Of a stretch of 64,000 nucleotides of DNA, positions 9,335 through 56,085 are shown in pieces (position 1 is the first letter of the stretch; each line of letters begins with the position of its first letter). The stretch is from assembly GCA_013239625.1 (NCBI GenBank), contig MU053911.1:300132-364131 (forward strand). Reading direction: 5' to 3'. The DNA comes from Lama guanicoe (lineage: Eukaryota). The translations under genes were made by a program, and so were the position numbers. The notes under the pieces are model-generated. The model ran no database searches. It was not told the DNA's origin and saw only the letters and a list, made by a program, of their open reading frames with translations.

Positions 9335-9670
9335 TTAATGTCCTGGCTGAGCTAAAATAGCGCAATAAACAAGGAACACGTGTGAGGACTCCACATACTC
9401 CAGACAGTGACGACCCCCGTGGCAGAGGTCGAGGAGTGTGCACCGCAGAGCAGGTCCCAGTGTGAGGCGTGTGCTTTGCGGCCTGGTTGTGTCCCTAATG
9501 TGCTGCTGAATGTCCGGGTGGCTGTGGTCCTTTGTTTTCTTTAGGGAACAGCACCTAACCTGCAACATTGCTGTGCCATATTTTTGAAAGAATTTGAAGA
9601 TACAACCGGGAGAGTGACTAAAATGACTTAGCACAGAATCTAACAATACGAGAAGTGACCAGGAAGGGAG
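9335..9670 (-). pseudogene. candidate relic exon carrying an RGS-like domain (3'-most seen)
   Basis: Acceptor ccttctccccatatatcAG (9672-9671). Open frame LPSWSLLVLLDSVLSHFSHSPGCIFKFFQKYGTAMLQ…DIQQHIRDTTRPQSTRLTLGPALRCTLLDLCHG…LEYVESSHVFL follows RGS helix order. Confidence 0.45.
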
Positions 9671-10109
9671 CTGATATATGGGGAGAAGGCGTAAAGGCCC
9701 AGAAGAAAGGCCAAGAATGCCGGTGAGCAAGGGTCATGTCAAGATGAGAGCCCAAAGGATTTAGGTTATGTCAGGAAATGGGGCGTTCACTTCTCTTATT
9801 TGCAAAGCAGATTTGCTCCAGTGTAGACTGTGTCAAGCATGTGGCAAGATAACAGATGAGCAGTGGGACATGGAGGAGAAGGTCTTTGGTGACCAAGAGC
9901 TTAACACCCTAGGAAGGAGAATGCTGCGTGGAGACCCTGAAGTCAGTCAGAGGGTGGATGGTCATAGGGAAGGGACATGGACCATGACTCAAAGGAACAG
10001 TCTTCAGTGACTGAGGAGAAGGAATCAAAGATGAGGTGAGAGATGCAGATGAGACCACCAGGCTGCGCCCCTCCCTGCGTCCAAGCCAGCGGTGTCCCTA
10101 CATCCACAC

Positions 10110-10580
10110 CAGCAGTGATGGTAAACCTCCCCACCTCCCCGTCCAGAAGAGAAATCTCTTCCCCCCACCCCCGGAATCTATGTTGGTCCTGCTGCTGTGT
10201 CAGTGGGTGTGCGGAGTGTGGGGAGACGTGTGTGGAGCGTGGGCAAATGATACTTTGGAGCCTCAGCCTCGATAGTCTTGGCTGCCTCCAAAATTGTTCC
10301 CTCGTGGTTCTTCCCAGCACCTCTGAGCCAGCCCAGGCTGCTCTACCACACAGAGATGGAGACCACACAGAGCAGAAATATGCTGTCTCATCTGAGGGCA
10401 GCCTGGTCTAGCCAGCCCTCAGGCAACCTGGAGGCAGGAATAGTCCAGCTGAGACCAGAAATAAAACCCAGTGGAGCACAATCCAAATTGCCGCCCTGCA
10501 GAATTATGAGTTGTGTACATAGTGGTTGTTTTAGGCCATTAAGGTTTAAGTCAGTTTGTTAATCAGCAAAAGCTAACATG
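10110..10580 (+). mobile_element. MaLR LTR (MLT1E/F-type)
   Basis: Ends tgcagaattatgag…gttgttttaggccattaaggttt…gtttgttaatcagcaaaagctaac. Confidence 0.75.
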
Positions 10581-11551
10581 CGAGGAAATGACTGTGACAA
10601 GGAAGAACAGAAAACAGCATAGCTGAATGGCATGAGCCTCAAAGAGGTCTTTTCATTGAAGGCACAGTTTACCACAGTTGGTCTAACAGGTTGTGAGAGG
10701 CACCTCGGTATTTGACGGCATTTTCTCCCCCTCTTATGCTGGACGCTAGGGGGCGTGTAATGAAAATAAAAACTAATACGGGACGTAGATTTTGGGGAAC
10801 TCCAAATGCATGTTCAGTTACACAATCACTCATTAAAATTTAAAACCAGTTCTTATATGTTCTATATAGTTAGAATGATATTTATGAGAAAGAAAGTAAT
10901 GTCTGTTTAGCAATTATCTGCACTGGCCTCTGGGTACAGATTTCCAAATTGGCCCTGTTCCCTCCAAGTGATTATTCCTCTGAGCTGGCCGCTCATAGCG
11001 TGCCCTCGCTCCTGCCAGTGCTGACTCTGCCTGATACTGGAAATATGTCTCACCTTCACCTCCTCCGCCTGGTGCCTGGCTCAGTGCTGCACATATACAA
11101 GCATATTCAGCAAGACATTTATGATTTACCTTTAAAATAAGCATGTGAGAAGTATTCACTTTAAAAGTAAGTTGAAAATTTATAAAGTAGTGAACATACT
11201 TGAAACAAACAAGGCAATTTCAATCCAAATCTTAAAACAAACATCCTGTCTTGTTTGGTAGAACTACTTTAGCATTGATGATGAAAGACAGGACATCGAT
11301 GACCTAGAAGTTATTTCTACTTGATATATTTCATTCTCTAGAGTCTGTCATTCCCTGTACAAAGTACCTCATCACGCCACTAAATATATGGTACCTGAAC
11401 TTTTCTCAGACTATCTGATTATTAGTGCAATGAAGTAAAATTAGCCACAACCCATCTTTCTTTTCTATGCCCCCTGCTCCCTGCACTTCTGAAGCCAACT
11501 GAAGCCAATCCCTGGCAGATTAGGACTCATGAATGCCATGTATAACGTCAC

Positions 11552-12239
11552 CTGCAAACTCAGGACACCCAGAACAATACCCAATCCTGGAAGAACAGGA
11601 AGGCCCTGCCTCTAGACTGGATGCGCCACACGAGCACACTGAGGCAGCAGCCTTCTCCGAGATGTGCTTTCTCACACAGCACTGTCGCAAGCTGGTCCAC
11701 TTCCGTGCACACGGCTTCTTCTACCAGGGCAAGAAACTGATTAATATCCTTCCAGAGGCAGTAATCCATAGCTCCTTTTTATTTGATCTCATTAAGGAAT
11801 TTCAGGTAATGTATAGTTAGCCTCCCTCATCAGACCATCCACACAAAAAAAGAGAGAATATAGTCACACTGTCTCCTGTAGTCTGCTTGTCGCTTCTCTA
11901 CTTGGAATGTGTCATCTGCTTCTTCCTTTACTCTTTAAGTCCTGGTTGACAAATGTCACAAGCTCTGCCTCATGTGAATTTATCTCTGCCCCCAACCCCC
12001 CACCCCACCTGCCTAATCCGCAGGCCTGATAGCTCATCACACAATTATCCACCCCAAAGAGGCTGTGCTGTCTGTGATTCTCAAGGGAAGTCAGCAGCCT
12101 GGAACACAACAATCTCCAAGTATGCGGATACATTATTTAAGATTGTAAAATATTAATCAAGTAAGAAAACACAGCAAGTCTCACTAATGCCGATGCTGTG
12201 GGCAAGATGGTTCTGGGACAGGACCAGACGTGCAGCAGT
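11552..12239 (-). pseudogene. candidate relic exon(s); RGS-like domain in 11552-11820
   Basis: Strong acceptor (cctcttcctctcctttctcttctgctgcctgcttctAG, 12241-12240), donor AG|GTGACG at 11551. Frame HYLKFLNEIK*KGAMDYCLWKDINQFLALVEEAVCTEVDQLATVLCEKAHLGEGCCLSV…AFLFFQDWVL. Confidence 0.55.
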
Positions 12240-14937: not shown

Positions 14938-15067
14938 CTCCATTTTTTCCTTTTGTTATTTTTCTTGAAATGGTTTTTGATGGATGAAAATGATTAAATA
15001 GCCTATTTAGTTGTAGTTGCACTACTAAATTGTATGAAGCATTCTTTTTAAAAAGTTCTGTCCTCAC
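14938..15067 (-). pseudogene. candidate relic exon (RGS C-terminal helices)
   Basis: Acceptor attcccccAG, donor AG|GTAAAT, open frame VRTELFKKNASYNLVVQLQLNRLFNHFHPSK…. Confidence 0.4.
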
Positions 15068-15149
15068 CTGGGGGAATGATGTCAATTTCTAATTATTGCC
15101 TAAAAAGGAAAGAGTAATGATACTTGAAAACTTCTGTTCCTAGACTGGT

Positions 15150-17110: not shown

Positions 17111-17699
17111 GGAAATGTGGTGGTCAAAGGAGGTGATGACAGAGCAAAAAGGTAACTTTAGTGGAATGGAGGTGGTGAAGGTGATTTAAAAAACCTCTAA
17201 GAGTCAAAGATTTAGACTGATTTCAGACTTTGCAATTGACGATGGAATAAAACACCCTGGATCACTGAAAAAGCATTGGAGATACCAGAATATTTTTCTC
17301 CTGGGTCCTTCCTCAGGAATCTACAAGTGGTCAAGTTTCAGACAAATGACATGACTTGAGAGACTACAATATAAAATCTGTTAGATTTTGTATAAAATAC
17401 TTGATATGCCAAAGACGACTTCTTCATGTTAAGCAAGCAAGGCTTCAAAGGTGAGATGTGATTGTACAACATGCATAAAGTATCAAAGTAACACCTTTTA
17501 CTTGGTCAGTGAGAATGTGACAGCAGGAAACAGCTGAGGTGTTTGGTGCTGCAACATCTGAGGCAAGCAGGCATGTATGGAGCTTAATAAGACACCAACG
17601 AAAATGCTTCAGACCGTTTCAGAGCAGGTCTGCTAAATCCATGGTCATTTATTCAGGATGATATTGGCAATAGCATTAGTATTTATTTCCACTAATGCT

Positions 17700-18560: not shown

Positions 18561-18579
18561 GTTACTTCCAGTATAATAC

Positions 18580-19435: not shown

Positions 19436-20342
19436 CTTAAAAAAAATACAAAATTACAGCATCTTTTTGGATAGTCTTTAAAGAAGAGGCATTTCTAGTA
19501 ACATAATAATAATAGCAACTACTACTTCCACTTTTATACTTACCTCATACCTATGAGTGTTTGATCAGTGTTTTATAGGAGACTGAACATATTGAGGGCT
19601 GTAAGAAAGAGTTGATTACTATAAGAAGTGCGTGTATCTGTGTGAGTTTGTGTGGCCATAATACTGACTTCTGAACATATGCTAAGCACACACAGACACC
19701 ATCATCTCTGATAATAAACTCTTGCATTCAATGTGTGTAAAGTTAAAAATGACAAAGTTATTTTAAAACTGTCCTCCTGTAAAACCCCTACATTATTTGC
19801 TCTTTTGAATTTAGGCAGCAAAGTCCTGTATAAATGTAAATATTATTTGAACACCATGAAACATTAAGTCCTTGTTGGCCATTATCATTTTAACTTAAAT
19901 TTCACTATCTAATTGGTGTAGTAGGGGCAAAGTGTGATGTATATTGCTAGGCCCATGAGTTTTTTTGAGCAACTTAAGCCACAGGCTCTTGTTCATGGAT
20001 TTTGTTAGGTGTTCATTCTAAGAGCTGGGTAGTAAGGCTTTTCTGTCCAATACACCTGCATAGGCTGGCCCCTTTTGGCCCCAGGAGCCAACTCAACACA
20101 GCAGATTGCTGTTTGGAACACCTGGAGACCTTTGTGAGAAAACACCAGTGTTGGGTTGCTCTGGGATTTACTTTTCCCCCATCTAACTCCAGAAGACGAG
20201 TGATTCTACAGCCAGGAGAAATGAGAAGACTTTCATGGGAAAGACAAGAACCGCATCTTTACTATCTCATTGTATCCACATCACGTGGGGCGCGACACCC
20301 CACAGTTGTTTGGTGACTGTGCTGATGGATGCCACCACCTAC

Positions 20343-20485
20343 CTTCAGACATTGCTCTGCAGCTTCAACTTCAATAAGTAATTTCCAATATTTTGCTTCA
20401 AATTCATCTGGTATAATTAGGAGGAATTGTCTTATCTCGGGTGTCTCTTTTTCCCCACAAATGAAGAAGACACTTAATAAACTCA
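20343..20485 (-). pseudogene. candidate relic exon (RGS helices 3-4)
   Basis: Strong acceptor (tgttttcttatcttttatttctcatctttgtatAG) and donor AAG|GTAGGT. Fully open frame SLLSVFFICGEKETPEIRQFLLIIPDEFEAKYWKLLIEVEAAEQCLK aligns without gaps to RGS22 FKKFIKGTLGERYWWLWMDIE (recalled). Confidence 0.6.
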
Positions 20486-26699: not shown

Positions 26700-26847
26700 T
26701 AAGTATGTGTTTTCTGTTTTTTTTTTTTCCCTTTGGCTTTCCCCTAGACAATGTCCCATAACATGAGGGCCTGTCAAAAACACTTTTGAAAACTGACAGC
26801 ATTGTAGAATTAATGAACTACATTCCAGAAATATAAATTTGACTTAG
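26700..26847 (-). pseudogene. candidate relic exon (RGS NLxFW motif); 3' boundary approximate
   Basis: Acceptor atttttatttttatgccctttAG. Frame KSNLYFWNVVH*FYNAVSFQKCF*QALMLWDI resembles canonical RGS ENLxFW and RGS22 KNSVYFW…KQAQYLF (recalled). Confidence 0.6.
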
Positions 26848-27529
26848 CTAAAGGGCATAAAAATAAAAATTTCAAGACAAACCCAAATGATCTAGAATGT
26901 AGTTAAAGCAAATAAAGCAGATAGAGAATAAATGCACAAGTCATGATTCAAAATATGAAGGTTATTATATATTGAATAGTTTTACCTTCTTAATATAAAT
27001 GTATTTTGCCAACCCCTGTCAGCAAGGCATTTGAGTTCCATTGCGGTGGTGAACTTGGATTTTTACTGACACTCCTCAGAAAGATAGAAGGAAAGGCGAA
27101 TAGTATTACATTATTTAAGAAACGAAAACAGTTTAAGAATAGGGAAGGTGTGATGGGAAAAGAATAGGGTTTTTTCTTGGGGGGGGTGCTTAATAAGATG
27201 GCCAAAATATTGAAATGAATTTTGATTAAAAATCTACTGCCTACCTTGGGAATTATTTAAAATGAAAGAATAAATCATATGGAAGTAGATGTTGGAATAT
27301 TTAGAAGGTTTCTGCTGCTGATTGACAGCTGTGAAGTTGACAAGAGAAAAAAAAATTATGTGACTGAACAAATTTGTATTGTTAATTTGGTTAAAATGTT
27401 CAATTTTACATCTTTGTTTGTTTGAATACTCTATACTCTTTTGATGGTTGTTTTGGGAGTATGGAATATGAAGAATAAAACCAGTGGACTTGTTCACGTT
27501 GAAATTGAACATTTTAATCAGATTCATAA

Positions 27530-29900
27530 ACATTTCTGCTCTATTTATGTTTTATTACATTACAAAAATTCATGCCATGTAGTATAAAAATGGAACAGCA
27601 CAAAAGGGGTGATAAAAAGGCAAGCACCCATCCTTGTCCCTTAATTGCAGAGCAGATTCTTACAGGCACTGCCGCTACTTTTATGTATTTCTGTTATCAG
27701 CACTTTATGATTATCATCAAATTACAAAAATAGGGCTATTTATTGATGTCCGTATGTTCATGTTCCAATAGATAAGAACTCTGTTTACTGAAAAACCTCG
27801 ATTACTCCTCCCTCCTATTCTGTATTTTGATTGTTATATCACTGATTTTAGTTCTTTTTATGGACATCTTTGTAACCACATGGTTAACCATGGATAACTG
27901 TGTACATTTAAAGTTCAATTCACCACCATGCCGTGGTGTCTTTTGATTTGCTGCTTTTTAAGATGAGAATGTTAACTTTCTGAGTGTAACCTCTCCTCTA
28001 CTCAAGTTCTACTTCCAAATTCTGTCACATCCTATTTCTGTTCTGTAACTAAAATAAAGGTCTTCACTTTGATTCTAAAAGTCAGCAGCCAATAAGCAGT
28101 GTTTACATAATGGTGACCAGGTGAGCGTTTTTCACGCAGGAGGAAGCAGTGTGCTATTGTCCCCTTTCCTTTCCTTCAGTAATGCTGTTATGGCCCTTAT
28201 GCCACACACAAAACTGGGATTCCAAACATCGAAGAAAATTATTTCCCTTTCATTCTTGTCTATCAGTTGTTTATAATAAGTCACATTCTATTTTGCTTCA
28301 TACTTAGATCATATTTTTCTTGGATATGTTTTTGTTTTTCCTGGAATTTGAAATTGCTTTCCACTTTTCTTATTGAGATATAAAATCAATACCACATTTA
28401 TTTCTAACATCTTCCAAGTTCTTACAAATTCGAATCTTCCTTTGTACTACACTCTTCTCTTACACTTAAAACATTCCTCTTAGAAGCAACTGGCTTCCAG
28501 ATCAAATTTGGAAAGATTAATTGTAGGCCTTCCGCATGGCTAAGAATTTTTTTTTAAATTGAACTCTTAAGCATGTCCAGCATTTCTTGTATGCAACATT
28601 TTTTTTCTTTCTCGTTTCCCAGCCTTGCTTTCCTGGTGTATGGTTTCAAAACCTTCCTCATGGAGGGTTCTTGTAAGATAAAGTCTTTTTAAAAAACTTT
28701 ATTCATACTCATGCTTCATTCATGATTTGGCTAAAGATATAATTTTAATTTCTTAAAAATATCCCTCCCTCCATCCTTTAAAAATTTCTGTCTCTTGTCT
28801 TCTAGGATATATTGTTTTTGTAAAAAAATTAGATGCAAGACTGATTCTTATTTCTTTACAGAAAATGTTTTGATTTGTTTTTCTCTGTGAAACTTTTTAG
28901 AATCTTATTTCAATATTCAGTATTTTAATAATTGATAATATTTCTATGTGTACGTCTTTCACAGATTCTTGCTAAATGACTTAAAGGAAATCATTTAAAG
29001 AAATCTGTCCTATTTCAGATTTGGGGACATTTCTTCCATTATTTCTTTTATAATTTTTTATCGTTTATTTCCCTACTTTTTTCTCTTGAAAACGAGCTAC
29101 TCAGACATTGAATTTTCTGGAGTAACACTTTGTGTCCTACAGCTTAAGCTCTTGGACAAGTCTTCATTTTATTTTCTCAGTGTTATATTGATTTTTAAAT
29201 TTAATCAGTCATACTTAAAAAAACTCTGCCTCCTTTTTATTATGTAGTTTATTGGGTTGTTTCTTACTGTTGATTTTTCTTCCTTCACATACGACTTACT
29301 GAAATTTTCTAAGTAGAGGTGGATTTTACCGATTTTTTTCCAAATATCCTTTCCATTTCCATAATCACCTGCTGCTTTGAGGTCACCTTCATCTAGGGCT
29401 TCATCTGTCATTGCTGGAGGGTGTCTTCAAATATCCAGTTGTCTTTATTTGTTCATATTTTATATGGAGAGATTCAGATGACAGACAAGGAGCTTGAAGA
29501 CGGTCAAAAAGCATTTTAGCATGAGCGGTCAAGCAGCTGGCCTCGCCCCTGGGGTTCTCCAGGACGCCAGAATTATTAGTGATTTATCCCAGAGTGACAG
29601 TATCCACCTTAGGTGTCTAGTTCCTCAAACTGTTTGAAGTTTTTATAGAGAAAATGCTCCGGCGTGCTGCATGGGAATAAACTCCTGGTCTGCACAAGTC
29701 AGGACGAGGCAGGATCTGACGGGGGTCTACGATTTCCTCCATGTGTCAAAGGAATGAATTTATCCTTTAACTTTGTGTCGTCATTCTGCTGATCTCCGCG
29801 AGTCTCACCAGCAGCCTATGTTGTCCTCACCTCCTGTGTTTGCATGTTGTTTGGTTTAATCGTTTCCATCCCTTCGTCTACTTGCCATCTTCACCATGGA
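27530..29900 (-). mobile_element. old, highly degraded L1 (L1M/L1ME-type)
   Basis: T-rich ORF1-antisense motifs (gatgcaagactgattctt…, ttggggacatttcttccattatttcttt). Confidence 0.55.
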
Positions 29901-30552
29901 TCCTTTCTTTCTTCTCCTTTTTGCTATTATGAATTTATAACTTTCAATTCATTTACTGTGTCACTTGAACAGAGTCTCAGAAGAGGTAAGAAAGATATAT
30001 GTGCCAAGTCAGGGACCTTGAGCCAGAAGACTCAGTGCTGTAGTTACTTGGGACAAAGGTTACATGCTTTTTTAAAACATGCTTTGAGCTTGCGATGTCT
30101 TTGCACTTGTGCTTGTACCCAGAGCTCAGATTCACCTGAGGGCACAAATGCAGCGGGTCCTCTACGGCCTCCGGTCACTCGGCACTTTATTCTTCCTGCT
30201 TCACCCTTAGCTTTGCTGCGGGACTCTGGGGGAGACCACCTCACTCCACGCCGGGAGAAGCTGGGGAAGGGGGTGTTCTCAGTTAATTCCTAGGGGTGGA
30301 GTCTAGTCCCCCTGGGGCCTTGGAGGTTGGGCTTTTCCCAGCTGTAGAGCCCTCTGGAGCTCCCAAGTGAAGAATATTCCAGAAGCACTGTGTCTTCAGG
30401 CAACAGCAGTTACACACAGAGGTGATGACCTGGAATGGGAATTCCCATTGCTTGTGGCAGCAGGGCTGATGGTGCAGGAAGTGTCACAGGGGTGTTTCTG
30501 CCGCGTGTACCTGCACCTGCCTCTGTGGCTGGAAGACGTCATCCCCAGACTG

Positions 30553-31150
30553 GCCCTTGTCTGGCCCTAATTGCCCCCCCCCAGGAGGGGGCGAGACAGT
30601 CTGGTGGCCTTTCTCCCCTGGCTGCTTCTTAAAGTTACATACACTAAGCACATTTTGTTAAAGTTGTAAATAAGCCAGCAAGCGCACGCACAGGCCTTCG
30701 CCCCCATCCATCCTCCACCCCGTTCTCCTGGAGGGAGAGTTGCAAGACAGACTTGTGTAGCTGGACGCAGGCCCAGAAATCTGGAAAGTGTATTATATGG
30801 GACCCTGTGGAGAAGCTCTTGGCCGCCAGCAGCTCTGGCCCTGGTTTCCAAGCCCTTGTCTGGCCCTAATTGCCCCCCCCCCAGGAGGGGGCGAGACAGT
30901 CTGGTGGCCTTTCTCCCCTGGCTGCTTCTTAAAGTTACATACACTAAGCACATTTTGTTAAAGTTGTAAATAAGCCAGCAAGCGCACGCACAGGCCTTCG
31001 CCCCCATCCATCCTCCACCCCGTTCTCCTGGAGGGAGAGTTGCAAGACAGACTTGTGTAGCTGGACGCAGGCCCAGAAATCTGGAAAGTGTATTATATGG
31101 GACCCTGTGGAGAAGCTCTTGGCCGCCAGCAGCTCTGGCCCTGGTTTCCA
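30553..31150. repeat. near-perfect tandem duplication (298 bp + 1 nt + 299 bp)
   Basis: Units 30553-30850 and 30852-31150 are identical except for a C9 versus C10 run. Confidence 0.97.
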
Positions 31151-32264
31151 CACACCATCAATCTGGGGCATGGCGGTCACTGCCCGCCCTCCCCACCTCA
31201 TGCAGAGAGCAGACACTCAGCCAGATCACTGAGGGAGGGAAGACGAGGGAAAGGAAGGACCAGGGATAGGGGAAAATGACAACCTTCCAACAGGCCATGA
31301 CTGCTTTTTACTGTCAGGTTGTTCTGGATGTCACTGGGGGGAGGAAGAAACCACAGGGGACTCAGTGGAAGGGCCAGTATCTCGACCAGCCTTCGGAATC
31401 AGCTCCCAGTGGACAGAAGTGAAACTTCAGGTGTTCTCAGAAAGGAGGCTGGATTTGGGAAATAGTGCCTGAGGCTAATTTGTAAGAATAGGGCAACAGA
31501 AGCGAAGTCTTTTGCTAAACCCCTTGGGGTCTGATTTACACCCTTTGTACAGAACAGGAAACTGAGGCATGCCAAAAGGTCAATTCAGCCATGAAAATCC
31601 CACACATATGACCAGAACCAGTAAAAGATGTGTGAGGCTTCCTCGTATTCGAATAAAATGTATGTGTTTCCTTAGACTTCTGAAGCTGGCTTAACATCCT
31701 CAAAACAGAAATAAGGAAAATAGTATTTCTGCAGAGAGAATTTTCTCAGGCCTTGTGATGTCTGTTATTTGAAATGGTCTTACTCCTGGTTTTTGCAGAA
31801 GAGGCCTCTGCATTCTTGTGCCATTTGGCTACTGCCTCAGCAGTGGCAGGCAGAAAGCCAGATGGTGATTCAGGGTCTCGAGGACACCTAAACTCTCGCT
31901 CCTGCTGGCTTCAACTTTGAATTTAACCTCAACCCTAATATTTTCCTTCAATAGGAAGGGACCCAGGCTTGCTTGATCAGGTTTTCCATGTCTGGTCTAA
32001 GGTCTGAGACCTGGATCATACTTGACTAGTGAGTGGAATTATTTGTGAGCCATAATGAGTACAAATTATGATAGTCAGAAAATTTGTAATAGGTACCAGA
32101 CACCTCTAACTACAAAGGAGAAACATTTCTATATGCTTCAATTTCCTTTACTCAAACTGGAAGTTTGCATCAGAAAATCAAACATTTTTCAGTGACTACA
32201 AAAAACCCCCACAAAAGTATAGATTTATCCCTGAAAAAAATTATCATCTCATGTAAATGTATGC

Positions 32265-32265
<1 letters not shown>

Positions 32266-34057: not shown

Positions 34058-35609
34058 ACGCAGGCCGGAGGCTGTGGAGTTTCCACACCTCAGGGACTGC
34101 CACCTGGTGTTTTCCGACTGAGAACGTGTGTGAGTGTCTTACTTACACCTGTTGTCCAGAACAAGAGTAGTCGGCCAATAAATACTGATTTTTCTTTATA
34201 TATCGATGCTTTCGCAGATTACTGTTAAATTAGCAATACTAGAATTAACTTCAAAGAGTACATTCTGGGTTTGGTTCAGACCAACATGGAAATGCTCAGT
34301 TTTTGATGTGAAACCTGCTGATTTGGTGAAGTGAGTGTGGCCATCCTAAGAGAACACTTGAAAAGCTTTCCTCACAGACCACTTTTTCATCATTATTTTT
34401 GAAGTATTCAGCTGTTGCACATGAGCTGCACACGGAGTGTTCAGGGTGGTGGTTCTAAGTGGCATAGTGAGGGTCTTGTGAGGCACTGCTAGGGTCTCAT
34501 TGCTTTGACTGATTTGCATTAAGGCCTGTGGAATATGGAATTTCAGTGGTGAAATTTGCACTGAATATGGTGATATTTTTACCTAATATGTTGACATTTG
34601 TGCCCAATTTGTATTGAGAGTGTGGAAGTAAGAACAAAATGATTCCCATGGCGAAGGTTGTAGTAGCGCAGCCTCACTGCCCACATTCACCATTTGGCCG
34701 AGAACCGTTCTTGGAGCTGTGTGTGCACACGTATACTCATAAAAGTCAAGGGAGGCAGTCAGTCATATGGGGATATGTAGCACCTTTTTAAACTTAATAA
34801 GTGGACGCAATAAGGAAGCTGTGCAGCAGCTCTAAAGGGATACAGTTTATATCAAGTTTGCATCGCAAGCCTTCCATAACTAGCCCTGGCAAACCTCAGC
34901 TGATCAGGCTCCAGGTCCCATTGAACTCCCCTTATCAGATGAGATTTAACATTTTAGCCTTAGATCAACCTCAGCTCCCAAAACGCTCAACTTCTGGAAG
35001 TTAGAATCAGAAATAAATGTGTATGGTTGGCTCACTCATTCTCCACTCACTTATTCACTTATTAATTGTCTTTTCTGTTCAACTTGTATGTATTGGATAT
35101 GCGAATAATAAACGACAGACACTAGGATAGGCGTGTAGAGATGATTAACACTATTTTTCTTCATGGTGATTAAGTTCTAGTGAGGGGGCAAAATAATAGA
35201 AATATAACAGTATAAAAGGATAATACAATGAAATAAAATGAAACATGTAAGATGTTTTACATAATTTATTTTATGTGATCAAGCAGGTTTTTTTTTTTTT
35301 CTGATGGTGGTAACATTCAAGATCATTTCTGAAGAGCGTGTGGAAATTTTCCAGGCTTACCTTCCACAAGAACATTTTTGACAGGGAGAAGTATTTAGTG
35401 TAAATTAATTAGCAAGATGATATAGTCTAAGAAATACAGTTTGATTTGATTTGCATGGGATGTACAATGTTTGGTTGACTTTGAATATGACTCTAAAGAT
35501 ATGTCTAGAAAGGAAAATGTAAGTCAGATGATGAAGGCCATATAGTTGTATATGCCAAAATAAAGGGTAATATTTTGTCCTCTCTTTTGAGAAAGAGATT
35601 TAATTAAAA

Positions 35610-38479: not shown

Positions 38480-38546
<67 letters not shown>

Positions 38547-39612: not shown

Positions 39613-40208
39613 AGATGTGAAGAGAACATCTTAAGCAGATGGGAGGTGTAATATGACTTGGGTTTTAAGCAGCTCTTTCCAGATCTTTCATGGCAAAGTT
39701 TACAAATGAGAAAGACATTTAACAAAGAAAAGAGGTTGGGTTTATTTATTTATTTTTTCAAGTATGATTGATTAAATTTAAGAATCAATATAACACTAAG
39801 AAAATAAAATGAAGACTTGTCCAAAAGCTTAAGCTGTAGGACATAAAGTGTTACTCCAGAAAATTCAATGTCTGAGTAACTAGTTTTCAAGAGAAAAAAG
39901 TAGGGAAATAAACAATAAAAAATTATAAAAGAAATAATGGGAGAAATGTTCCCAAATCTGAAATAGGACAGAATCTTGGAATAAGATACATTGTTGTCAG
40001 TTTTTTAAGAAGAGTATTTAATTGAGAAGAAAGTTCATCCAGTAATTATTTAAGCTGCGAGTTTTATTCTAAATGCTCTGAGATCACTGAAGTTTCTAGA
40101 TACAAGTATGAATAAACTTTGGTGTGTGTGGGGCCAGTTGCAGGTGAGGGCAGGAAATGGGAAAGTATTTAATGTGTTTTCTCAGATGTATATGCATCAT
40201 AATGCCTT

Positions 40209-40315: not shown

Positions 40316-40382
40316 ATCATAATGTCTTATCATTGGTTTTATTCTCTTTTTAGAGTCTAAAATATTTCTTATAAAATGTTAC

Positions 40383-41362: not shown

Positions 41363-41996
41363 TGAGACAGGAAGGGGGCAGGGCACAGCCATTCAAGGAA
41401 TGCTACAGCAATTAACTTCAAAATGGTGAAAGATTTCAATCCCCTGTAGGCCTTGAGGCTCAAGATGATGGGAGACTTAACTTCTAGTAGACCTTGAGCT
41501 TCATTATATGCTTATTGTAATATATTAACATGGTGAATAACATGCCCACAGGCGCCATGACAGTCCCAAGGCTAGCCACAAAAGGTCAAAGAATGGGAAA
41601 TGGCCAACTTCCTGGGAATCCCAGCCCCTTCCCCAGGCTGGTTAGACTGGTCCTTCCACTTATTAGCATATGAAGCCACTGAGCCCATTGAAAGCTGAAA
41701 ACACAGTGCCTCACGGGCTGCCGTCTCTCTCTCTCCTGTTCGGAGACAGCCCACACTCTGTCTGTGGAGTGTGTACCTGCTTTTAATGAGCACCCAACCC
41801 CCACACCTCGTGGCCTTTCTCTTGCCTTTCAATGTATCTCTCTGAATAAATCTACCTTTACTTAACTGTGGCTTGCTCTTGAATTCTTTCCTGTATGAAG
41901 CCAAGGACCCACGCTTGGCAGGGCATGTCCCAGGTGCTCAACTGAAGTCTGAGACACAGTCTTCCTCACACCCCATGTCCGTTTTTTCCCACATCA
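41363..41996 (+). mobile_element. solo ERV1-class LTR inserted in a MIR
   Basis: TG…CA ends, AATAAA near 41845, perfect 4-bp TSD ATCT. MIR halves on both sides (ctctggagtcaaat… / cctcagtttcttcatctgta). Confidence 0.92.
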
Positions 41997-42288
41997 ATCT
42001 CACCCCTTGGTTCCTCAGTTTCTTCATCTGTACTATGGGAATAATAACAGTACCTATTTTTAAGTCTTTGCTAGTGTTGGGGGAATATATTATATATATA
42101 TATAATATTTTGATGAATAAACAGACAGTCCAGAATCTAAGAAAAAAATTTTATTGTGGAGATATATATGTACTTGTACATGGTTTCAAAAAGCCAACCA
42201 CACAAGTTAGCTAATTCTTGTCTAGATTTGCTTAGGGATTTTAAAATAACAATAAAAAGAGAAGGTTCAGAAGCAAGAAAATATTTAC

Positions 42289-42524
42289 CTTCAGATATTG
42301 TCCAGTCAACAGGGGAAGAGGTATGGGACTTGGTCTTGACATTGCGATTGGAAACCACAAAAGAGGGGACAAAGCAGTAAAATCCTGAGGGACACTGAGC
42401 TACAGTTACTGGAGGTGGTTAGTTCTGAAAAACGGAACCACTTGGCAATAATGCTGTAGGAGACATTCGGACAAACACCAGTTTGCCTCTTGATTTCAAA
42501 ATTTTTAGGTGTAGGATTCTATGC
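42289..42524 (-). pseudogene. candidate relic exon (RGS C-terminal helices)
   Basis: Donor AAG|GTAAAT. NPTPKNFEIKRQ…SYSIIAKWFRF would continue the domain begun in 47091-47354. Acceptor degenerate. Confidence 0.4.
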
Positions 42525-46375: not shown

Positions 46376-47090
46376 ACTTAGATGTCAGGAGGAACAGAAA
46401 ACAAATGGTAATAATAAGTAAATCTAAGTAAACATCATTCATATAAAATAATTAAAAACCACTATATATATTTTTATATTTTTTAAGAGGGTAAAATATA
46501 AAGACATAAAGAGTAAATGAGAGGCAACAGTTGGTTTCAATGCTCAGAACTTTTGAGATACACTGCCTGATTTCAAATCCTGCAGTAGCATTCATGAGCT
46601 TTGTGACCTTAAATAAGTGAAACTTTGTTAATCCTTTTTTACTCATCTTAGAACATGAGTAGTTATTGCATCCATCTCAAGGGGTTATGTGAAGACAAAC
46701 TGAGTTCATGTATGCAAAACACTTAGACCCTTGCCTAGGGAAGGCAAACCCATCATGTGCTCCTTGAAAGGAACAAGACTATTGATAAAGTGAATTGATC
46801 ATGTAAAATTTTCAATTTAGACTGCTTTTCAAATATACTCTGTATCAATAATTAGAGCAATATAGAAACTCCGACAGATTTTTGTTTCATTCTGTTTTAT
46901 TTATCCTCTAAAAATGGCAGAATGGCTGAATAGCTGAGAAGAACCACAAATTCCACAGAAAATAGAAACGTAAATAACTAAGAGTTGACCAGTAGAATAT
47001 TGGTAAATGAGAAAAAATATTCACAATTAAGACTGGACCAGTCACTTTAGAGACTCTTTATTCTGTATAGAGGTACTCAAAACCATTCAC

Positions 47091-47354
47091 CACCAAGAGG
47101 GCAGGCTTGGACTTGTGGTTCTTTGTCCTGTGTCTTTGTTGGAAGTATCACTGGAATAACTGGATGTCCAGGTAAGAGAAAACCGCCAACAGTCTTTGCT
47201 ATCCTACTTGTTTTAGAACAGACGCATGGCTACCAAGACCAGTGGTCATTGACACTGACAACTTCCTCCAAAACAAAGTAAGAATATCGGCAGTCTGTTG
47301 GTAGAAAGAATTTGAGTAACATTGACCTTCTCTCCTAAGAGAACCATTTGTTGC
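47091..47354 (-). pseudogene. candidate relic exon carrying most of an RGS domain
   Basis: Strong acceptor (ttaattatttcccttcattcAG), donor GTGAAT, 264 nt. With two compensating frameshifts it reads MLLKFFL/QQTADILTLFW/EEVV…KTSRIAKTVGGFLLPGHPVIPVILPTKTQDK. Confidence 0.6.
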
Positions 47355-47854
47355 CTGAATGAAGGGAAATAATTAAATACTGCCTTTTAAGATGACAAGT
47401 TAAATTCACAGACATCTGCTGTTTGGTCAGAGTTTGCTGGAGCTTTTGAGATGGTCCATGGGACCTGCATTTCCCTGTAATAGGGAGTTAATATGCCCAT
47501 AATGACAACGCTGTGTGATTCATTTCTGTTTTTTCTCCATCTCTTCTAAAGACGAAGATTTTCAGCTGTTCTTTATTAGTCTCAAAATAAGGTTTAAATA
47601 GGCCAGAAGCCCCCTTTCTGAGAATAGTGACATTGTAAAGTTAAAGACACATATCTGTGTCCCAAAGTAAAACAAGACACTATGTCTTCATTCTCAGTGT
47701 CACTCTTGTGTGGCTCAGTAGGGTTAATAAACACGTTGGAATCACTTGGGAATTAGCAGCACTTGTGGAAACTTCTGAGTTTAGTGCCTGTTCTATCTGG
47801 ACCAAGTATGAGAAAGAGATCGTGGATATCCGCCCCTGAAGAGGCCACAGACAC

Positions 47855-48239
47855 CCGTTCTAAACAAATGCACGATGAACTCCATGTGTTTTCGTTTTTA
47901 AGGAGCTTGCTGCACTGAGTGGAAGTTTGTCCATTTTTTTATAGTGAGAGCGTTTCCAGGCCCTCTGGGAAATGAAGCTAAGGGAATCTCCTGTACCAGT
48001 GGTTTTAGCGCCAACACTGTTAGTGCCCTGCAAGCCAGGGATGTCCCCACTTTCGGGTAATGCCATCTTTTGAGATTTAGGTGAAGTGGTGACCGCTTTC
48101 TCAGATGACATGTGCTTAGATAGACATTCACTCAGTGTGGTCCACCAGCCACGGGTTTCCTTGGTCTCTCTGTCCGTTGGGTCTCTAGGAATCCTCTGAC
48201 ACCAACGTCCTCTCTAGAAGAACTTGACAACTTGTTCAG
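47855..48239 (-). pseudogene. candidate relic exon carrying an RGS-like domain; 3' boundary approximate
   Basis: Acceptor attttatcccAG. Motifs in order across frameshifts: EQVVKFF, VNVYLSTCHLRKRSPLHLNL, PLVQEI/LSFISQRAWKR. Confidence 0.5.
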
Positions 48240-48899
48240 CTGGGATAAAATGTTCATTTCCTATTGTTCTCTTCCTCTCTTTGTGCGATATGGTGTCATT
48301 ACTTTTTTTTATTGGAAACCCAGTGCAGGAGGTTTTCCTTTCCCAAGGAGAAAGGGCCCTGGGAGATGCTGCTCAGGTGTATAGACAGTGCAGGGTGTAG
48401 CTACATCAGCTCCGCCGTCCAGTCACTAGCCTGTCTTCTCCCACTCGCTGCTCACAGGGAGCGTGCTTCAGGCATCGTAACGCTTTCCTTGCAGTAACTG
48501 TCTCTTACCTGGATTTCCACTTCTGTAGACTACTTCTAAGTGCTTAACATAGGTTTTTTTTTTTCTATTTAGAATATTACAAAAGAGTAGGATTGCTTGC
48601 AATTCATGTCCCCTAAGCTGTACAATAACACACAGGGGTGGGCTGGGCAGTGATCAAGCCAGGTTTTTCCCACTTCTCTCAGCAGTTGAAACTCCCAAGG
48701 TATGTTTCAGTTCCATAGGAATGCAGCCTCGAAAACCAGTAAGCAACGCTGAGGCCGTGACGCGAGTGTGGGTGGAGGCTGGTCTGTGTCCGACACCCCA
48801 GCAGGGGGCACCCTTTGCCTCTGCCCAGTGCTGGGCGTTTTGAGTCCAGCCGTGAAATGATAGCATCAGGTTCCTTAGACACGAAAAGTCACTACTTAC

Positions 48900-49080
48900 T
48901 AAAAATATCTGTTTCTACCCATCTTTACAAGGAAACCATCAAGATTCCATTGAGCAGATTAAAACTTTCAGAAATAATAGGAGTACTGGCTCCTCAGCTG
49001 AATCTCTGCATCCAACACAACTTTTTCACCAGGTAACATCTGACACCAGCTCCTCGACGTGAGGAAAACGACCTTTTGTC
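48900..49080 (-). pseudogene. candidate relic exon (second half of an RGSL1-like domain)
   Basis: Perfect donor GTAAGT (48899-48894). RFPHVEELVSDVTW*…VLLLFLKVLICSMES*WFPCK resembles RGSL1 EEMLQCDA…LLTLQGHVMKSIEEKWF (recalled). Phase matches the preceding exon. Confidence 0.5.
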
Positions 49081-49430
49081 CTGTGCATTTCAACATCCCA
49101 TAGGCTGTCCACCCTAAGGGTCCTGACCATTAGAGAAAAAATGTAGAAGAAATGAGTAAAGAAGGAAGAATTTTAAGACTTTTGTCAAACAGCTGAAATA
49201 TTGTGATCCTGGTGTCATTTAAATTTCTGAAAAGATTTAGGGCAATTCATATTTAAGCCCTATGACTAATCCACTCAGAAACCAAAGTCATTACAAGTCT
49301 CACTTCTTTATAGATCATCTGATAGCAGACAAATCAGAACTGAACAAAAGTGTATTCTTCTGAAACTACTATAGAGTCGAAGAATCAGAAGCTCTCTGAA
49401 GACCTATGTGATACCTCTCAAATAACTCAC

Positions 49431-49559
49431 TTGGTTAGAAGAGTATTATGTAACCATGACAGTGGTGAAGATAAGTTTAGAGACGTGCTCGTATTTCAAG
49501 CAGAACTATGTTGTAATGGAAACAAAGAATTATTAGCAAGTTCATTCAGATTCTTTTTC
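49431..49559 (-). pseudogene. candidate relic exon (RGS helices 1-4)
   Basis: Acceptor ttcttatttatctttaccggcccAG, perfect donor GTGAGT, 129 nt. KKNLNELANNSLF then, frameshifted, FCLKYEHVSKLIF. Confidence 0.5.
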
Positions 49560-50228
49560 CTGGGCCGGTAAAGATAAATAAGAATAGTCTCTTGGAAAGT
49601 TAAATGTCAACAAAGAAAATGCAAGTGTGCTTAGAGGCGAAATTGTCATACTGAATACGGAGGTGTGAGTTTGCTGTCTGACGAGTGTACCTCTAACTAA
49701 ATTGTTCGTGATACTGTAATGCATAGAGCACATCAATGGAATAAAAAATACTACCTTAATTTTTTTTAATTAGAAATATTGACATGTATATGCTGTCTCC
49801 TGAGTTTTCCGAGGCATTTATCTGAGAAAGTATATGAACACAGGAGATGATCCTTTGACGATGCTTTCATTTAAACAGCATGAAATAGTTTGCAGGGACA
49901 CCATTTTACCTTTTCTTGGTCTGTTTTATTTTTTAAGTGACTGTGGCCTACTTTACTGATATTTAAACACAAACTCTAGACTGCAAGTCTAGATTAGAAT
50001 GCAACTCAGTCTAGAATGCAACTCTAGACTGAATAAAGATAATTCCTTGGAGAAAAAGAGAGAATTCCTGTATTTCATTACAAGAACTTTAGAATTCACT
50101 GCTTTTCCTCTCATGAAACTTAAAGGATGTTAAAAATACAGGAAAATATAACCTGACAAAATCTGGTAGCTCCTAAATGTCAGTGAAAAATCTAATGTGA
50201 TGTTTTATTTCATAGTAAATGAAATTAC

Positions 50229-50505
50229 TTCGTAATGTATCAAGTGTGTTTCCAAATGGAAAGCCAAAGCCTGCACCAACTCTGCACTGCCAAGAAACGT
50301 TCTGCCGTGGTTCTCATTGTTGACACAGCGTCTAAACGAAGGCCTCAGATGAAGGGGGAAAGCACATCTTTACACCCGGGCTTCTTGGCAACAGAAGAAA
50401 GTGCTGTACTGTTCTCCTCGCAAACCGTCCCCATTAGAGCTCAAGATGTTCTTTTCCTTCTAATCCTCATTTGTCCCCTTAGCCATTTGTTTAGAATTAA
50501 ATTAA
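50229..50505 (-). pseudogene. candidate relic exon
   Basis: Acceptor ttttccaaattgcAG, donor GTAATT. FI*GLRLDAVSTMRTTAERFLAVQSWCRLWLSI resembles RGS22 AFRKALLNPVTSRQFQRFVALK (recalled). Confidence 0.4.
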
Positions 50506-52224
50506 CTGCAATTTGGAAAATGTGGATGAAAGGTAGTGCATTGAGTAGATATCACATGTTTCCTGAATGGTGCCTGTTCGGCCTCTTTCACGGCCATTCA
50601 TTGTGCTTGAAAGGGTGTAGTGTGTGAATTGTTGGACTGTCACTCTGCAGAGAAGTCTGGCAGCCAGTATTACCATGGAAACAGCAGGAAAAAGACAATT
50701 AACAAAATGGCTCTGATTTTTTTTTCCTATTTCTTTTTCTACTCTTTAGATTTAGAGGATATTCGCCCTTTAAAACACACACACTCAGATGTACGCACAT
50801 ACCCTCAAGCACACGCACCAAAAAAAAATTTGAAAATCTACTTATACTTGGATTCCTCCACTGATAGTATCTGTGAAAATTGTTTTAAAAATCACATTTC
50901 TAATATAAAATATTTATAGATGATTCTCTCAACGTCTTCCTCCCCCCCTTTCTGTTTTTGTTCTTTTCAGACATGGAAAGAGTTCTTTGGAAATATCCTT
51001 AGGTAAACGACTGTTAATGAGCAGAGTCTGTGATTTTAACCCTGGCACATTCATTGGACTTTTAATTAGTCCCTCTTACCATCACTCCCATGACAGAAGC
51101 ACAATGTAGGCCCAAGAGCTTAAACCAAAAGGAGGCTCTCTTTGGATTTGTGAACCTTAGTTTAGGTTAGCACATGAGGGAAAGAGGGCTATATGTGGCC
51201 GTTCTGGCTAGAATTTGTGACTGAAGGGTTAACAAAGCATAGAGAGTAAACGTTTGATGTCACCATTCATGCTAAAAACGCATTGCAATCTAAACTTTGT
51301 CAGACTTTGATTTTCTTTAAAAAGCTATTTATAAATAAAGGGAATGATTGTACATTGTCAGCATCATAATCAAAGTAAAATATGAGTGGGAGACCTATTG
51401 AGCCCGTGTGTCAAATATTCCATTGAAATGAAACATGGTGCTTTGCAGATAAGCACTCTAAGTGCAAAGAGATACTTGGGAATGTAAGAATGCAGGTTTC
51501 CTTTGCACACTGTATTTAAAATCGGTTCTCTTTCCTAAGCCTTATAGAAAAAAAATAATTCTATATGAGGCCGAAGCCCAACAGTGACCTTGAGCTTGTT
51601 CTGACTTTAGTACAATGAAAAAAAGTTTTCTACCAGAATGGAATGGAAGTATCTACTGTTTTACAGAACATTTATTGGCGTCCCTAAAATTTGAGGCAAG
51701 TCTCCAAAAACCATTCTCAAAATTTCCCAAACCAAGGAAAGCTTAACCACTGTTGAATTATGTTTTTTTTTTGTAAATTTTCTCCAATGTTTCATGCTTC
51801 CTCTAATCGACAATATTCACTTCTGATTGTAAAAAGGCTCATTTAAACACAAAATTCCAGGAAAGATTTTTCAGGCAAGGATGTAATCTGTTTTTACCAC
51901 ATTTTAGAATCTGGGTGAATTTTTAAAAAGCCTTTTAATTTCTGATAAAACCCATAGGTTATACCTTAATGGGGCTGAACAAAAAATTGTCTTTATTAAG
52001 TAATTCTGAACCAGATCCTGAGGAAAAGAGACGGTGTTCTAGATTTGGACAGTCCCATATTTTTTGAGGCTAGTCGTTTATACTATGCAAAAAAAAAAAA
52101 TTAAAACATATTAGCATATTTGGAAGGAAGTATTTGAGAAAAAGTCATGTGAAAGTTTGAAAAATGTGTATGGTTTTGAATTGAAGTCAAGCAAAACTTG
52201 ACATTTTTAGTAAGAGGAAACCAC

Positions 52225-52332
52225 AAAGTAGTGATTTTCAGATTCTATAATCCTGGGCAGCTCTGCTTTTAGCCATATTTAACTTCTTGTCAACTGTATC
52301 ATTGGGATGAACACAAATCCCTTTGGAAGTGA
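52225..52332 (-). pseudogene. candidate relic exon (RGS terminal PRFxxS motif)
   Basis: Acceptor ttctgatatacctcatAG. SLPKGFVFIPMIQLTRS*IWLKAELPRIIESENHYF. Donor weak. Confidence 0.4.
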
Positions 52333-53690
52333 CTATGAGGTATATCAGAAGATAATTATTTTTAATTTATAGTGTAGGATTTTAGAGTAAAGAAGTTGAA
52401 AACCCAATGTTCTAAAATGAAAAAAATGAAATGGGTCACTGAGCCATTGTTAAGATACATATTTCATGAACAAAAATTCACATAGCATCAATCGTGTGCC
52501 AGGTACCATGGGATGACAAATTTGGGTAAAGGTCAATAAATAAGTCTGGGATTCATGACATTTAATGAGATATCAGCTTCATAAACACATTTATAACAGA
52601 CCCAAATAGTGTGCCATTAATGAGAACAGGGACTTAGTTCTGCTCACTGCTCTACCCCCAACACCTAGACCAGTGCCTTGACACGGACTATATTAGTTCA
52701 AGACATGTTTGTAAAGTTAATTAATCTCATTTGTCACTATGGCAAACCTAGGAGTCCTGACTCATTCATCTGTCCAAGCATCCTTTAGTATGCATAATTT
52801 CTTATTTTAGATTTTCTCCTTCAATAAATTTCATATAAGGCTTGTAGTGGATTTAGACATCTGTAGAGCTACTCTAGCACACATTTCAAATTTAAGCCCA
52901 TTTCTTTACGTTTTCTGTAATTTTTACATTATCTGTAGCCAATATGATATAACAGTAAGTTATAACTGGTATAATTAGTTATGTGCAGAAAATATAACTG
53001 AAATTAAATGTTACTATCATTTCCTCTTGTAGTTCCCTTTCTTAAAAAGATTTAAAAAGTAATCTTACATTTTCAGCATATCATGCTATATGTCGTCAAA
53101 TAAAGAGGAAAAAGAGATGAGAAGGAAGTAGAGGAACAGGAGAAAAGTGAAGGAGAGAAAGTAAATTAAGAGCAAGAAAGAATAATGAAACATGTCATTC
53201 TACACTCTGTACTATAACTGAGCAATGCTTTTCCTGATTTTTATGAGAATCTTGTAAATCAGTCTCTGAGTGCACATCTAGGTGATTTTACCTGTTTCCC
53301 TGAAATGACAGGTTGCTAAGCAGTGAGCTATGTCTAATTCTGTACAAGCAATGACATGGTTACAAAAAGAGAGAGAGAGGAATTTGCAAATACTGAGATA
53401 TCACAGAAATAAGAAGACTCAGTGAATTTTTAGTCTTCCAAAAATGAGTGTAAAGGACTTCAAGAACTTGTATATCAAAGGGGCCAAAAAGGCCGGTGAG
53501 CCACAGGTACTCTGGCCTGACTCTGCAGACAGGTGTGTGCCCCAGCACACGCCCTGAGGACGCTGCCACCTGGGGGCTCTTGAATGTGATCAGCAGAGTT
53601 TTCTGTTGCCGCACTAGAGCTTAATACTGGGTTCTTACAGTATCAATTTACAATTTCTCCTCAAACATACTGTTTCTTCCACTATGTGTG

Positions 53691-53742
53691 TGTGTGTGTG
53701 TATATATATACATATATATATGTATATATATACACACACACA
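53691..53742. repeat. perfect 52-bp purine-pyrimidine palindrome (TG)5(TA)5CA(TA)4TG(TA)5(CA)5
   Basis: Equals its own reverse complement when read base by base. Confidence 0.92.
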
Positions 53743-53964
53743 AATGTACATACACACATCTGCTTGTATATATAAAATAGATGTTTATTTTGACTATTTG
53801 GAAAAATGCTGAGAAGACTGAAAAATAAAGTCACTCATAAGATCATCATTCACAGAAAATCATGTCAACGATATACTGTTTATCTTTTCATTAATTTTCT
53901 GAGATTACTTATCTAAAGTTTAGATAATTACAGAAAAGAAAATCTGACCTACGTTCTAGACCCC

Positions 53965-54160
53965 ATATAGCTAGACCATATACTAGCTATACAGGGCTCT
54001 TTAAATATACATTAAAATTAATTAAATGAAATTTGAAATCAGTTCCTCAGTCACAGCAGCTACACTGTCAAGTGCTCAGTTGCCACGTGTGGCTGGTGAC
54101 CACCACGTTGGGCAGTGCAGATTACAGAGCTTCTCCACGACCAGGGAGGGTTCTGAGCAT
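53965..54160. mobile_element. MER3/MER33-like hAT MITE
   Basis: tcagttcctcagtcacagcagctacac…tcaagtgctcagttgccacgtgtggctggtgaccacc…gggcagtgcaga. Confidence 0.8.
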
Positions 54161-54569
54161 CATTGTTGCAGGCCTACTGTACGTCTACTGCACATACTCC
54201 TTAGTTACTAACTGTTTGCACTTAAAAGTGTACTGAAAGCCTTTCCTTATGATGCTAAATATACATACTATTATATAAAATGGTTTACCTGAATTATCTT
54301 GATAAGCATATATTGTCACACATTGCCCTATTGATTTTTTGTTATTAGCAATAATACTTACCATAAATATATTTTAGAAATATTCCTGCACACAGGACTT
54401 TAATGAGTGTCTTAAAACGCCAAGACAGACATAGATACTGTCATGTGAGCAGCCGCAGTCATTCACACCACACTCTCTATGGACCCTCTTCAATCTCAAG
54501 TTGCATTTTAGATTTACATGGTAGTTTACAGGAGTTTATAGTGAAACAGTATCTATTTTTTGCACACAT

Positions 54570-54755
54570 GATTAAAAATAAATATTTTCTTTTTTTGCTA
54601 AAAATCCAGAGAATTGCAGAGTTGTCTAAGTTTCTGAAAAGGTACATCGGCGATCCGACACTTGCCCAGCGCTGCTTCCTTCTGTATGTTAGCGCACTGT
54701 ATTTTATTCAGATTCTTTAGACAAAAGTGGAGTCACCATTAGAAGTCTATCTGAT
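54570..54755 (-). pseudogene. candidate relic exon; 3' boundary approximate
   Basis: Acceptor catttcctgcAG. AALGKCRIADVPFQKLRQLCNSLDF*Q, where the TAG sits at the invariant RGS Trp (TGG) position. Confidence 0.45.
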
Positions 54756-54807
54756 CTGCAGGAAATGCCTGCTACTTTAGAGGTGAACTAGTCAAGATTC
54801 CCCTTCC

Positions 54808-55430
54808 ATTTTTTTCTATTGAAGTATAGTCAGTTATAATGTATCAATTTCTGGTGCAAAGCATCATGTCTCAGCCACCCATATACACACAGATATTTGT
54901 TTTCATAGTCTTTTTCATTATAGCTTATTACAAGATATGGAATATACTTTCTTGTGCTATACAGAAGAAACTAGTTTTTTTAATCTATTTTAAACACAGT
55001 AGTTAGTATCTGCATATCTCGAACTCTCAATTTATCCCTTCCCACTCCCTTTCTCCCCAGTAACCATAAGTTCGCTTACTATGTCTATGAGTCTGTTTCT
55101 GTTTTGTAGATGAGTTCATTAGTGTCTTCTTTTTCTTCTTCTTTCTTAGATTCCACATACGAGTGATAGCATATGATATTTTTCTTTCTCTTTCTGACTT
55201 CACTTAGAATGACAATCCTCTGGTCGTTCCATGTTGCTGCAAATGGCATTATTTTATTCTTTTTTATGGCTGAGTAATATTTCTTTGTATAAGTATACCA
55301 CAGCTTCTTTATCCAGTAAAGGATATCTGTTGACATTTAGGTTGTTTCCATGTCTTGGCTATTGTAAATAGTGCTGCTGTGAACGTTGGGTGCATGTATC
55401 TTTTCCAATTATCCTGGATCATATGGTAAG
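54808..55430 (-). mobile_element. L1 3' end (ORF2 C-terminus + 3' UTR)
   Basis: Antisense translation WIKKLWYTYTKKYYSAIKKNKIMPFAATW and artiodactyl-type 3' UTR. Confidence 0.92.
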
Positions 55431-55857
55431 TCTATTTCCTTTGAATTTGTCACAGTTTAAACTACGCCTGCATTCATTCCTTTGAATTGTCTGCTTTGCA
55501 TTATTGATTAAGGAACTGCAGTTTTTACCAAACACACTTATTTTTTTCCTTAGGCTGTGCCCTTGGCCCTGATATCCTTGTGTGTCCAACTCCTTGCTTC
55601 TTGTTTATCTTAACATTTCAGTGTTTAATTTCATTGAGTTTAGAGAAGTTCTTGTTGTTTCATTACAGATCACTCTGTCAGTAAGCTGTGTAATTCACAA
55701 TGTAAATCTTTAAATTTTAAAGAAAAAGAAAAGAAAAATGTTTAAACATTTCAGCATCTAGATAAAATAAATTCGATTTTTTTCTATTAGTAACAATATC
55801 CCAAGATGGTGAAGAAAGTCAGAGCATGTAACAAATGTTGACATGGGCAGAAATTAC

Positions 55858-56085
55858 TCCTTTAAAACAGTGTCTCAGAATTTAAACTTCCTAATCGTTT
55901 CGTGTATTTTTAGCACAAGAAGTCCTGCAGACGCCCTCCCACAGGTTACAGATTTCACTGGGCGCAGCTTGTGTGTTTTGTTTGCAAAACATACAAAGCC
56001 TACATGTCAGCATGGTGTTATATGCATATTTGTTAAGATAATCCTCACTTCGCTTTTTGACAATAACAGTTTTGTGTCCATGCAT
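55858..56085 (-). pseudogene. candidate relic exon (RGS helices 2-4)
   Basis: Acceptor ccctgttctgtgccaAG, donor GTAATT, 228 nt. PVGGRLQDFL/LKIHETIRKFKF*DTV with TGA at the expected Trp. Confidence 0.45.

Follow-up and report, generated by a model that had tools for sequence, protein, structure and literature searches.

A candidate relic of a gene with many RGS-like domains in a gene-free stretch of the Lama guanicoe genome

The locus and its candidate exons

Two CpG islands in Lama guanicoe (GenBank assembly GCA_013239625.1, contig MU053911.1, positions 300,132 to 364,131 of the forward strand) flank about 55 kb of DNA without a recognizable gene. We analyzed this region as a window of 64 kb, with a guanine plus cytosine content of 39.6% and a CpG observed/expected ratio of 0.32. 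This article concerns a series of exon-like pieces on the minus strand, running from about 56 kb down to 9.3 kb in a 47-kb gene-free stretch of the window, which had been predicted from the DNA letters to be the remains of a gene encoding many RGS domains. Our preferred reading, to which we assign a probability of roughly 0.7, is that these pieces belong to a unitary pseudogene of considerable age, derived from a third RGS22/RGSL1 family member, and this reading is unproven.

In three-frame views, about 19 minus-strand pieces were seen by eye to carry RGS helix motifs in a sensible order, with stops or frameshifts in nearly all of them. In these frames, the locus is unable to encode an intact protein. 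The estimate of about 8–10 partial domains comes from the by-eye reading only. All nine motifs quoted in the original prediction were recovered from the minus strand (at 26845, 47291, 11769, 54615, 55889, 20393, 47187, 48104 and 52263), one of which, ADILTLFW/EEV, requires a one-base frameshift to be read. The five quoted donors were likewise found where they had been placed; among the GT sites of the minus strand, four rank above the 98th percentile, and the fifth, at 48899, is a weaker donor of 5.1 bits (93rd percentile). Splice scoring brought out three pieces beyond the predicted segments (52017-51965, 35504-35361 and 19598-19544).

Following the minus strand from its upstream end, the series begins with the piece KFKF*DTV (55830-55951), which has a background score and by eye a core resembling helices 2-4 across a frameshift. 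The piece NSLDF*Q (54556-54755) has an acceptor of 6.8 bits and ranks third on the minus strand in the class-motif test described below, yet at background level. It is followed by WLKAELPRIIESENHY (52195-52311), for which Pfam and NCBIfam gave no match and which may resemble the N-terminal segment of RGS22/RGSL1. The 53-nt candidate exon at 51965-52017 has a very strong acceptor (13.5 bits) and is stop-free in two frames, and a 129-nt candidate exon at 49431-49559 lies between an acceptor of 8.4 bits and a donor of 9.1 bits. Further along are a candidate exon with a weak donor (48900-49122), the piece HLRKRSPLHLNL (47770-48230), which by eye resembles the loop of helices 5-6, and an RGS-like domain that is near-complete by eye (47029-47353), with one frameshift and then three stops and without a database match.

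A candidate exon at 42289-42452 ends at the quoted donor 42288, and the 144-nt candidate exon at 35361-35504, absent from the original prediction, has an acceptor of 8.6 bits, a donor of 11.2 bits and the motif DYIILLINL*, which resembles helices 7-8. The long piece at 34147-34831 was read by eye in multiple frames (TASLDFY and SPYSVQIS) and is followed by the candidate exon HIFYWFWSYVWDF (31450-31728; acceptor 7.8 bits) and by an RGS-like domain that appears by eye to be spread over three frames (30463-31150). The top-scoring piece (26729-26891) covers helices 2-5, with DHLGL in one frame and LKFL, KSNLYFWNVV and QALMLW in the next. The 143-nt candidate exon KYWKLLIEVE (20343-20485) has one stop-free frame and a donor of 10.4 bits, and the 55-nt candidate exon at 19544-19598, selected solely for its splice scores of 9.3 and 12.0 bits, resembles helices 5-6 by eye. 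The 130-nt candidate exon NRLFNHFHP (14938-15067) also has one stop-free frame, in a phase that fits the end of the 20.4-kb piece. Another RGS-like domain, near-complete by eye, occupies two frames at 11474-11826, with a 14-nt indel between them relative to the database open reading frame (ORF) P0002. The last piece, KDHSHPDIQQHI with PALR (9338-9640), has no database match and may resemble the last RGS22/RGSL1 domain.

By eye, the fold order of the motifs is kept inside the pieces at 47.2, 30.7, 26.8 and 11.8 kb, and the splice-bounded trio at 20.4, 19.6 and 15.0 kb shows helices 3-4, 5-6 and 8 in order. The stop-free frames of the 20.4- and 15.0-kb pieces are compatible in phase. With repeats defined by self-BLAST inside the window, the claim that the segments lie between repeats held for the pieces, except that the one at 30.5-31.1 kb contains, at the 5' end of the candidate exon, a tandem duplication of 299 bp (30553-31150, 99.7% identical), which is either young or an artefact of the assembly. 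Within the window, self-BLAST did not reveal dispersed copies of any piece, and a tblastn comparison of the pieces with each other revealed no internal protein repeats.

None of the sequencing runs matching 46.9-53.6 kb is listed as RNA, and four runs of one study are possibly RNA. These four share 0.13-0.14 of the words at 46900-53600, which is about the fraction that the candidate exons would cover and would equally be expected of DNA from a related species, and we count it as no evidence.

Tests of the RGS resemblance

The strongest signal was obtained with a class motif written by hand for RGS domains. In a composition-corrected test that allowed frameshifts, the 26.8-kb piece scored 18.4 bits, compared with a maximum of 16.6 bits in 100 shuffles. 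No other piece rose above background with this motif, the next minus-strand peaks being at 11.8 and 54.6 kb, and the top score of an earlier, uncorrected version was below the 95th percentile of the shuffles. For the most part, then, an excess over chance was not shown: the 26.8-kb piece exceeded the shuffles with the class motif, but the counts of splice sites and open exons were like those of the plus strand and the shuffles, and the other profiles gave background scores.

Because the class motif was biased by prior sight of the pieces, we also built profiles from authentic RGS domains. We fetched 117 metagenome loci, which yielded 16 non-redundant domains; six of these run into introns and were omitted, and the 10 full-length domains were kept. 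Three of three domains checked against the Pfam RGS family matched it. A pairwise HHalign comparison of the 26.8-kb piece with the authentic RGS profile gave an E-value of 0.015.

A substantial body of results weighs against an RGS origin. The class motif was written only after the pieces had been seen, plus-strand decoys can also look RGS-like by eye and meet a crude motif nearly as often, and in a leave-one-out test none of the 12 hand-picked pieces rose above the shuffles. HMMER, frameshift-aware and core-column profiles of the 10 authentic domains placed all candidates at background, and the HHalign E-values of the core alignment (0.16), the P0002 alignment (0.47) and the 47.2-kb piece (0.55) compare with 0.12 for plus-strand decoys. 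No RGS family was matched by 53 reads in Pfam or by seven reads in NCBIfam, and no RGS protein was found in the PDB with eight queries derived from the window or from P0002. Word-based homologue searches were blank for targets of 246-2000 aa and 30-58 aa, and with alignment A6 they gave no matches among 2907 candidates of 145-2000 aa; target lengths of 59-144 aa and above 2000 aa were left out of the word-based searches. There is no strand excess of strong donors (27 minus, 25 plus) or strong acceptors (86 minus, 81 plus), and stop-free, splice-bounded pieces number seven on the minus strand and three on the plus strand, where 200 shuffles averaged 4.1 such pieces (95th percentile, 8). Within the series itself, the phase of the 19.6-kb piece does not fit its neighbors, and a strong acceptor is missing at 11.8 kb (0.9 bits) and at 26.8 kb (1.7 bits).

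Across the 53 reads, Pfam matched only GH49 (E 0.025) and DUF2569 (E 0.039). As regards G-alpha-binding residues, the acidic motif E-x-S-x-E-N (alignment A8) was not seen by eye in any piece, which decay alone could explain. The membership of the RGS family claimed in the original prediction draws on the order of the motifs, as seen by eye, and on the presumed likeness to RGS22 and RGSL1; all objective profile tests except one were null.

The power of these tests varies with the type of domain. Planted contiguous RGS domains with 15% decay scored higher than the 95th percentile of the shuffles in all 24 trials, and the most divergent planted domain, a protist RGS domain with 25% substitutions, exceeded it (23.3) in two of eight trials. 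When an authentic RGS domain was searched against the PDB, RGS22 was not among the best 60 of 69 matches, and the presence of RGS22 in this library is unconfirmed. The objective tests are therefore weak for RGS22-type domains that are both decayed and split by introns. Judged from the sequence, canonical RGS domains that decayed recently can be excluded, an exclusion that stops short of old, intron-split domains of the RGS22 type.

The 11.8-kb piece and its database relative

When the segment 11826-11347 was run with HMMER against the full set of 1.84 billion representative proteins, it gave a single match, P0001 (34 aa, E 9.4e-4, 71% identity over 31 residues), which is a short ORF. Its cluster mate P0002 is 82 aa long, occurs in 21 Logan contigs and aligns to the window in two frames with the 14-nt indel between them (tblastn E 7e-24). 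The identity amounts to 22/31 and 34/46 residues, many of the changes are non-conservative and third-position changes are not in excess. P0002 is open through the indel, along the frame path that by eye has an RGS-like C-terminal pattern (helices 7-9). A single frame, frame A, running through the whole piece had also been considered and was dropped after this comparison. No locus for P0002 was found in metagenome or prokaryote contigs, the ESM Atlas held nothing usable for P0002 or for a stop-free piece of 50 aa, and an AlphaFold2 model of P0002 from a three-row alignment had a mean predicted local distance difference test score of 45.6.

We infer that P0002 probably corresponds to orthologous DNA from another mammal that has diverged neutrally. 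This neutral-like divergence and the disablements (stops, frameshifts) of almost all pieces support the prediction that the locus has decayed. No intact close homologue of the 11.8-kb piece is present among the 1.84 billion representatives, each of which hides its 50% cluster. Since P0001 was detected at 71% identity, the scan should also have matched RGS22, RGSL1 or a close orthologue that was intact and of similar identity. A copy as young as the camelids would likewise have given strong matches to its relatives, and there were none. This supports the view that the 11.8-kb piece derives from neither RGS22 nor RGSL1, nor from a recent copy of them, as had been predicted for the locus as a whole; the scan covers this piece alone.

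Flanking genes and other features of the window

Downstream of the relic, the first coding exon of a CpG-island gene is found on the minus strand (2170-2251), with an ATG at 2202, 11 codons and a GT donor. This exon may be the N-terminus of ZNF268; a literature search with the motif of the exon found nothing. In human, ZNF10 is presumably located directly upstream of ZNF268, and no remains of ZNF10 are visible at 3-57 kb of the window. On the other side, a CpG island on the plus strand (57300-58273) contains the start of a spliced unit of opposite orientation, which has a donor following 57542 and then a 55-nt exon (58219-58273), and it is possible that this island was a promoter shared with the candidate gene. 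In one cattle window, the genes listed in a table are ZNF140, ZNF10, ZNF268, MBD3L1, ANHX and CHFR, and no RGS gene is included there (PMC12075139).

The idea that a decayed KRAB zinc-finger gene is hidden in the stretch was rejected: there is no KRAB box or finger array, and the isolated matches look like chance. The base skew across the stretch is mixed and uninformative. Two repeat pairs were observed in addition. An inverted pair of 220 bp with 95% identity (29004-29223 and 39753-39972), about 10.5 kb apart, is much closer than the other repeat pairs of the window, and copies resembling long terminal repeats, 70% identical and in opposite orientation, are located at 41508-42002 and 62734-63233.

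Interpretation and alternative explanations

We hypothesize that the minus strand bears the eroded exons of an ancient gene, the product of which would have been a long string of divergent domains with the RGS fold. Because no intact close orthologue turned up, the loss would be old and is probably common to many placental mammals. RGS22 is a radial-spoke protein with four divergent RGS domains that lack the G-alpha-binding residues, and it braces the radial spokes (PMC13443885). For these reasons, and by analogy, the ancestral product of the relic may have served as a structural, multi-domain scaffold of motile cilia or sperm flagella rather than as a G-alpha GTPase activator.

A more far-reaching scenario, to which we give slightly less than even odds, is that vertebrates had a third and larger axonemal gene of the RGS22 family, with about 8–10 RGS-fold domains and located beside the ZNF268 cluster, which was lost early in the placentals but still exists, without annotation or without a name, in marsupials, reptiles or fish. 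If so, a specific gene loss would be tied to changes in the structure of mammalian sperm and cilia. If the relic itself is real, it would record a hitherto unrecorded gene loss in the evolution of mammalian cilia and sperm, and an uncharacterized axonemal protein in other vertebrates would be open to direct study. Such a gene or relic is not described in the literature that we searched, which included few subscription papers.

The main rival is that the region between the two CpG-island genes is ordinary non-coding DNA of some age, and that the RGS motifs are chance matches picked out by readers who had been primed to see them. This would explain why every objective test except one was null, from the profiles, leave-one-out and splice counts to Pfam, the PDB and the homologue searches, and why plus-strand decoys fit the crude motif almost as well; it also agrees with the comparison to P0002, in which the identity is equal in both frames without codon bias, as in non-coding DNA. 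However, the 26.8-kb piece exceeds 100 of 100 shuffles, the tests are weak, as seen from the protist domain and the PDB search, and by eye the order of the motifs is coherent both inside and between the pieces. We consider this explanation unlikely, but it deserves to be taken seriously, and if it is right, the locus shows the danger of matching motif patterns in old non-coding DNA.

The pieces might instead descend from RGS22 or RGSL1 themselves, through an old duplication that was possibly followed by rearrangement, and not from a separate member of the family. The presumed resemblances would fall on specific domains of both genes, and internal duplication, of which the young 299-bp duplication is an example, could have inflated the domain count. 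Yet a copy of placental age would be about 60-75% identical and would match its parent, given that P0001 was detected at 71% over 31 residues, and the candidate domains outnumber the four of RGS22, which makes such a duplicate very improbable. Still harder to credit is an origin from the coding remnants of ancient transposons, or from an unrelated gene with helical repeats. In its favor, the region is old and unmasked by any repeat library, but no transposase, reverse-transcriptase or ORF1 family was matched in the 53 Pfam reads, where GH49 and DUF2569 were the sole hits, and several pieces have exon-like splice sites. We favor the hypothesis of a lost third member of the RGS22/RGSL1 family.

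Comparison with known systems

The relic shares with unitary pseudogenes a multi-exon layout, many disablements and the circumstance that no close parent was found. Such pseudogenes are defined by an intact outgroup orthologue, which was not found for the relic, whereas multiple disablements are present, provided that the pieces are exons. The canonical RGS proteins that act as GTPase-activating proteins (R4, RZ, R7 and R12) share with the pieces the hydrophobic helix pattern by eye, best seen at 26.8 kb. They differ in having a single domain with conserved G-alpha-binding residues, and the candidate pieces did not pass as canonical RGS domains, since the 10-domain profiles put them at background.

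RGSL1 presumably has the same general architecture as the relic, and the pieces at 48.2, 47.2, 11.8 and 9.6 kb may resemble it. Likewise, the 52.3-kb piece may resemble the N-terminal segment of RGS22/RGSL1, those at 26.8 and 35.4 kb domain 2, and those at 11.8 and 9.6 kb the last two domains in succession, with traits of both paralogues; this would agree with the order of RGS22 at both ends. By a rough estimate, each of these resemblances alone falls below significance, and it is their order and number alone that are persuasive. The gene adjoining the relic also differs, we presume, from the neighbor of RGS22.

Both paralogues are known as proteins. Bovine sperm proteomes list RGS22 as well as RGSL1 (supplementary file 2, PMC11779644), RGS22 protein has been found in cattle and pig axonemes and RGSL1 protein in bovine and mouse sperm (PMC11779644), and it is only recently that RGS22 was identified as a radial-spoke component specific to animals (PMC11779644, PMC13443885). 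The relic is unlike RGSL1 in that the RGSL1 protein is present in sperm, and the 11.8-kb piece has no RGSL1 match. In contrast to RGS22, the relic is broken and has about twice as many domains by eye, and no search links the two; what it would have in common with RGS22 is a multi-exon organization and a series of several divergent RGS-fold units, which in the relic were recognized by eye.

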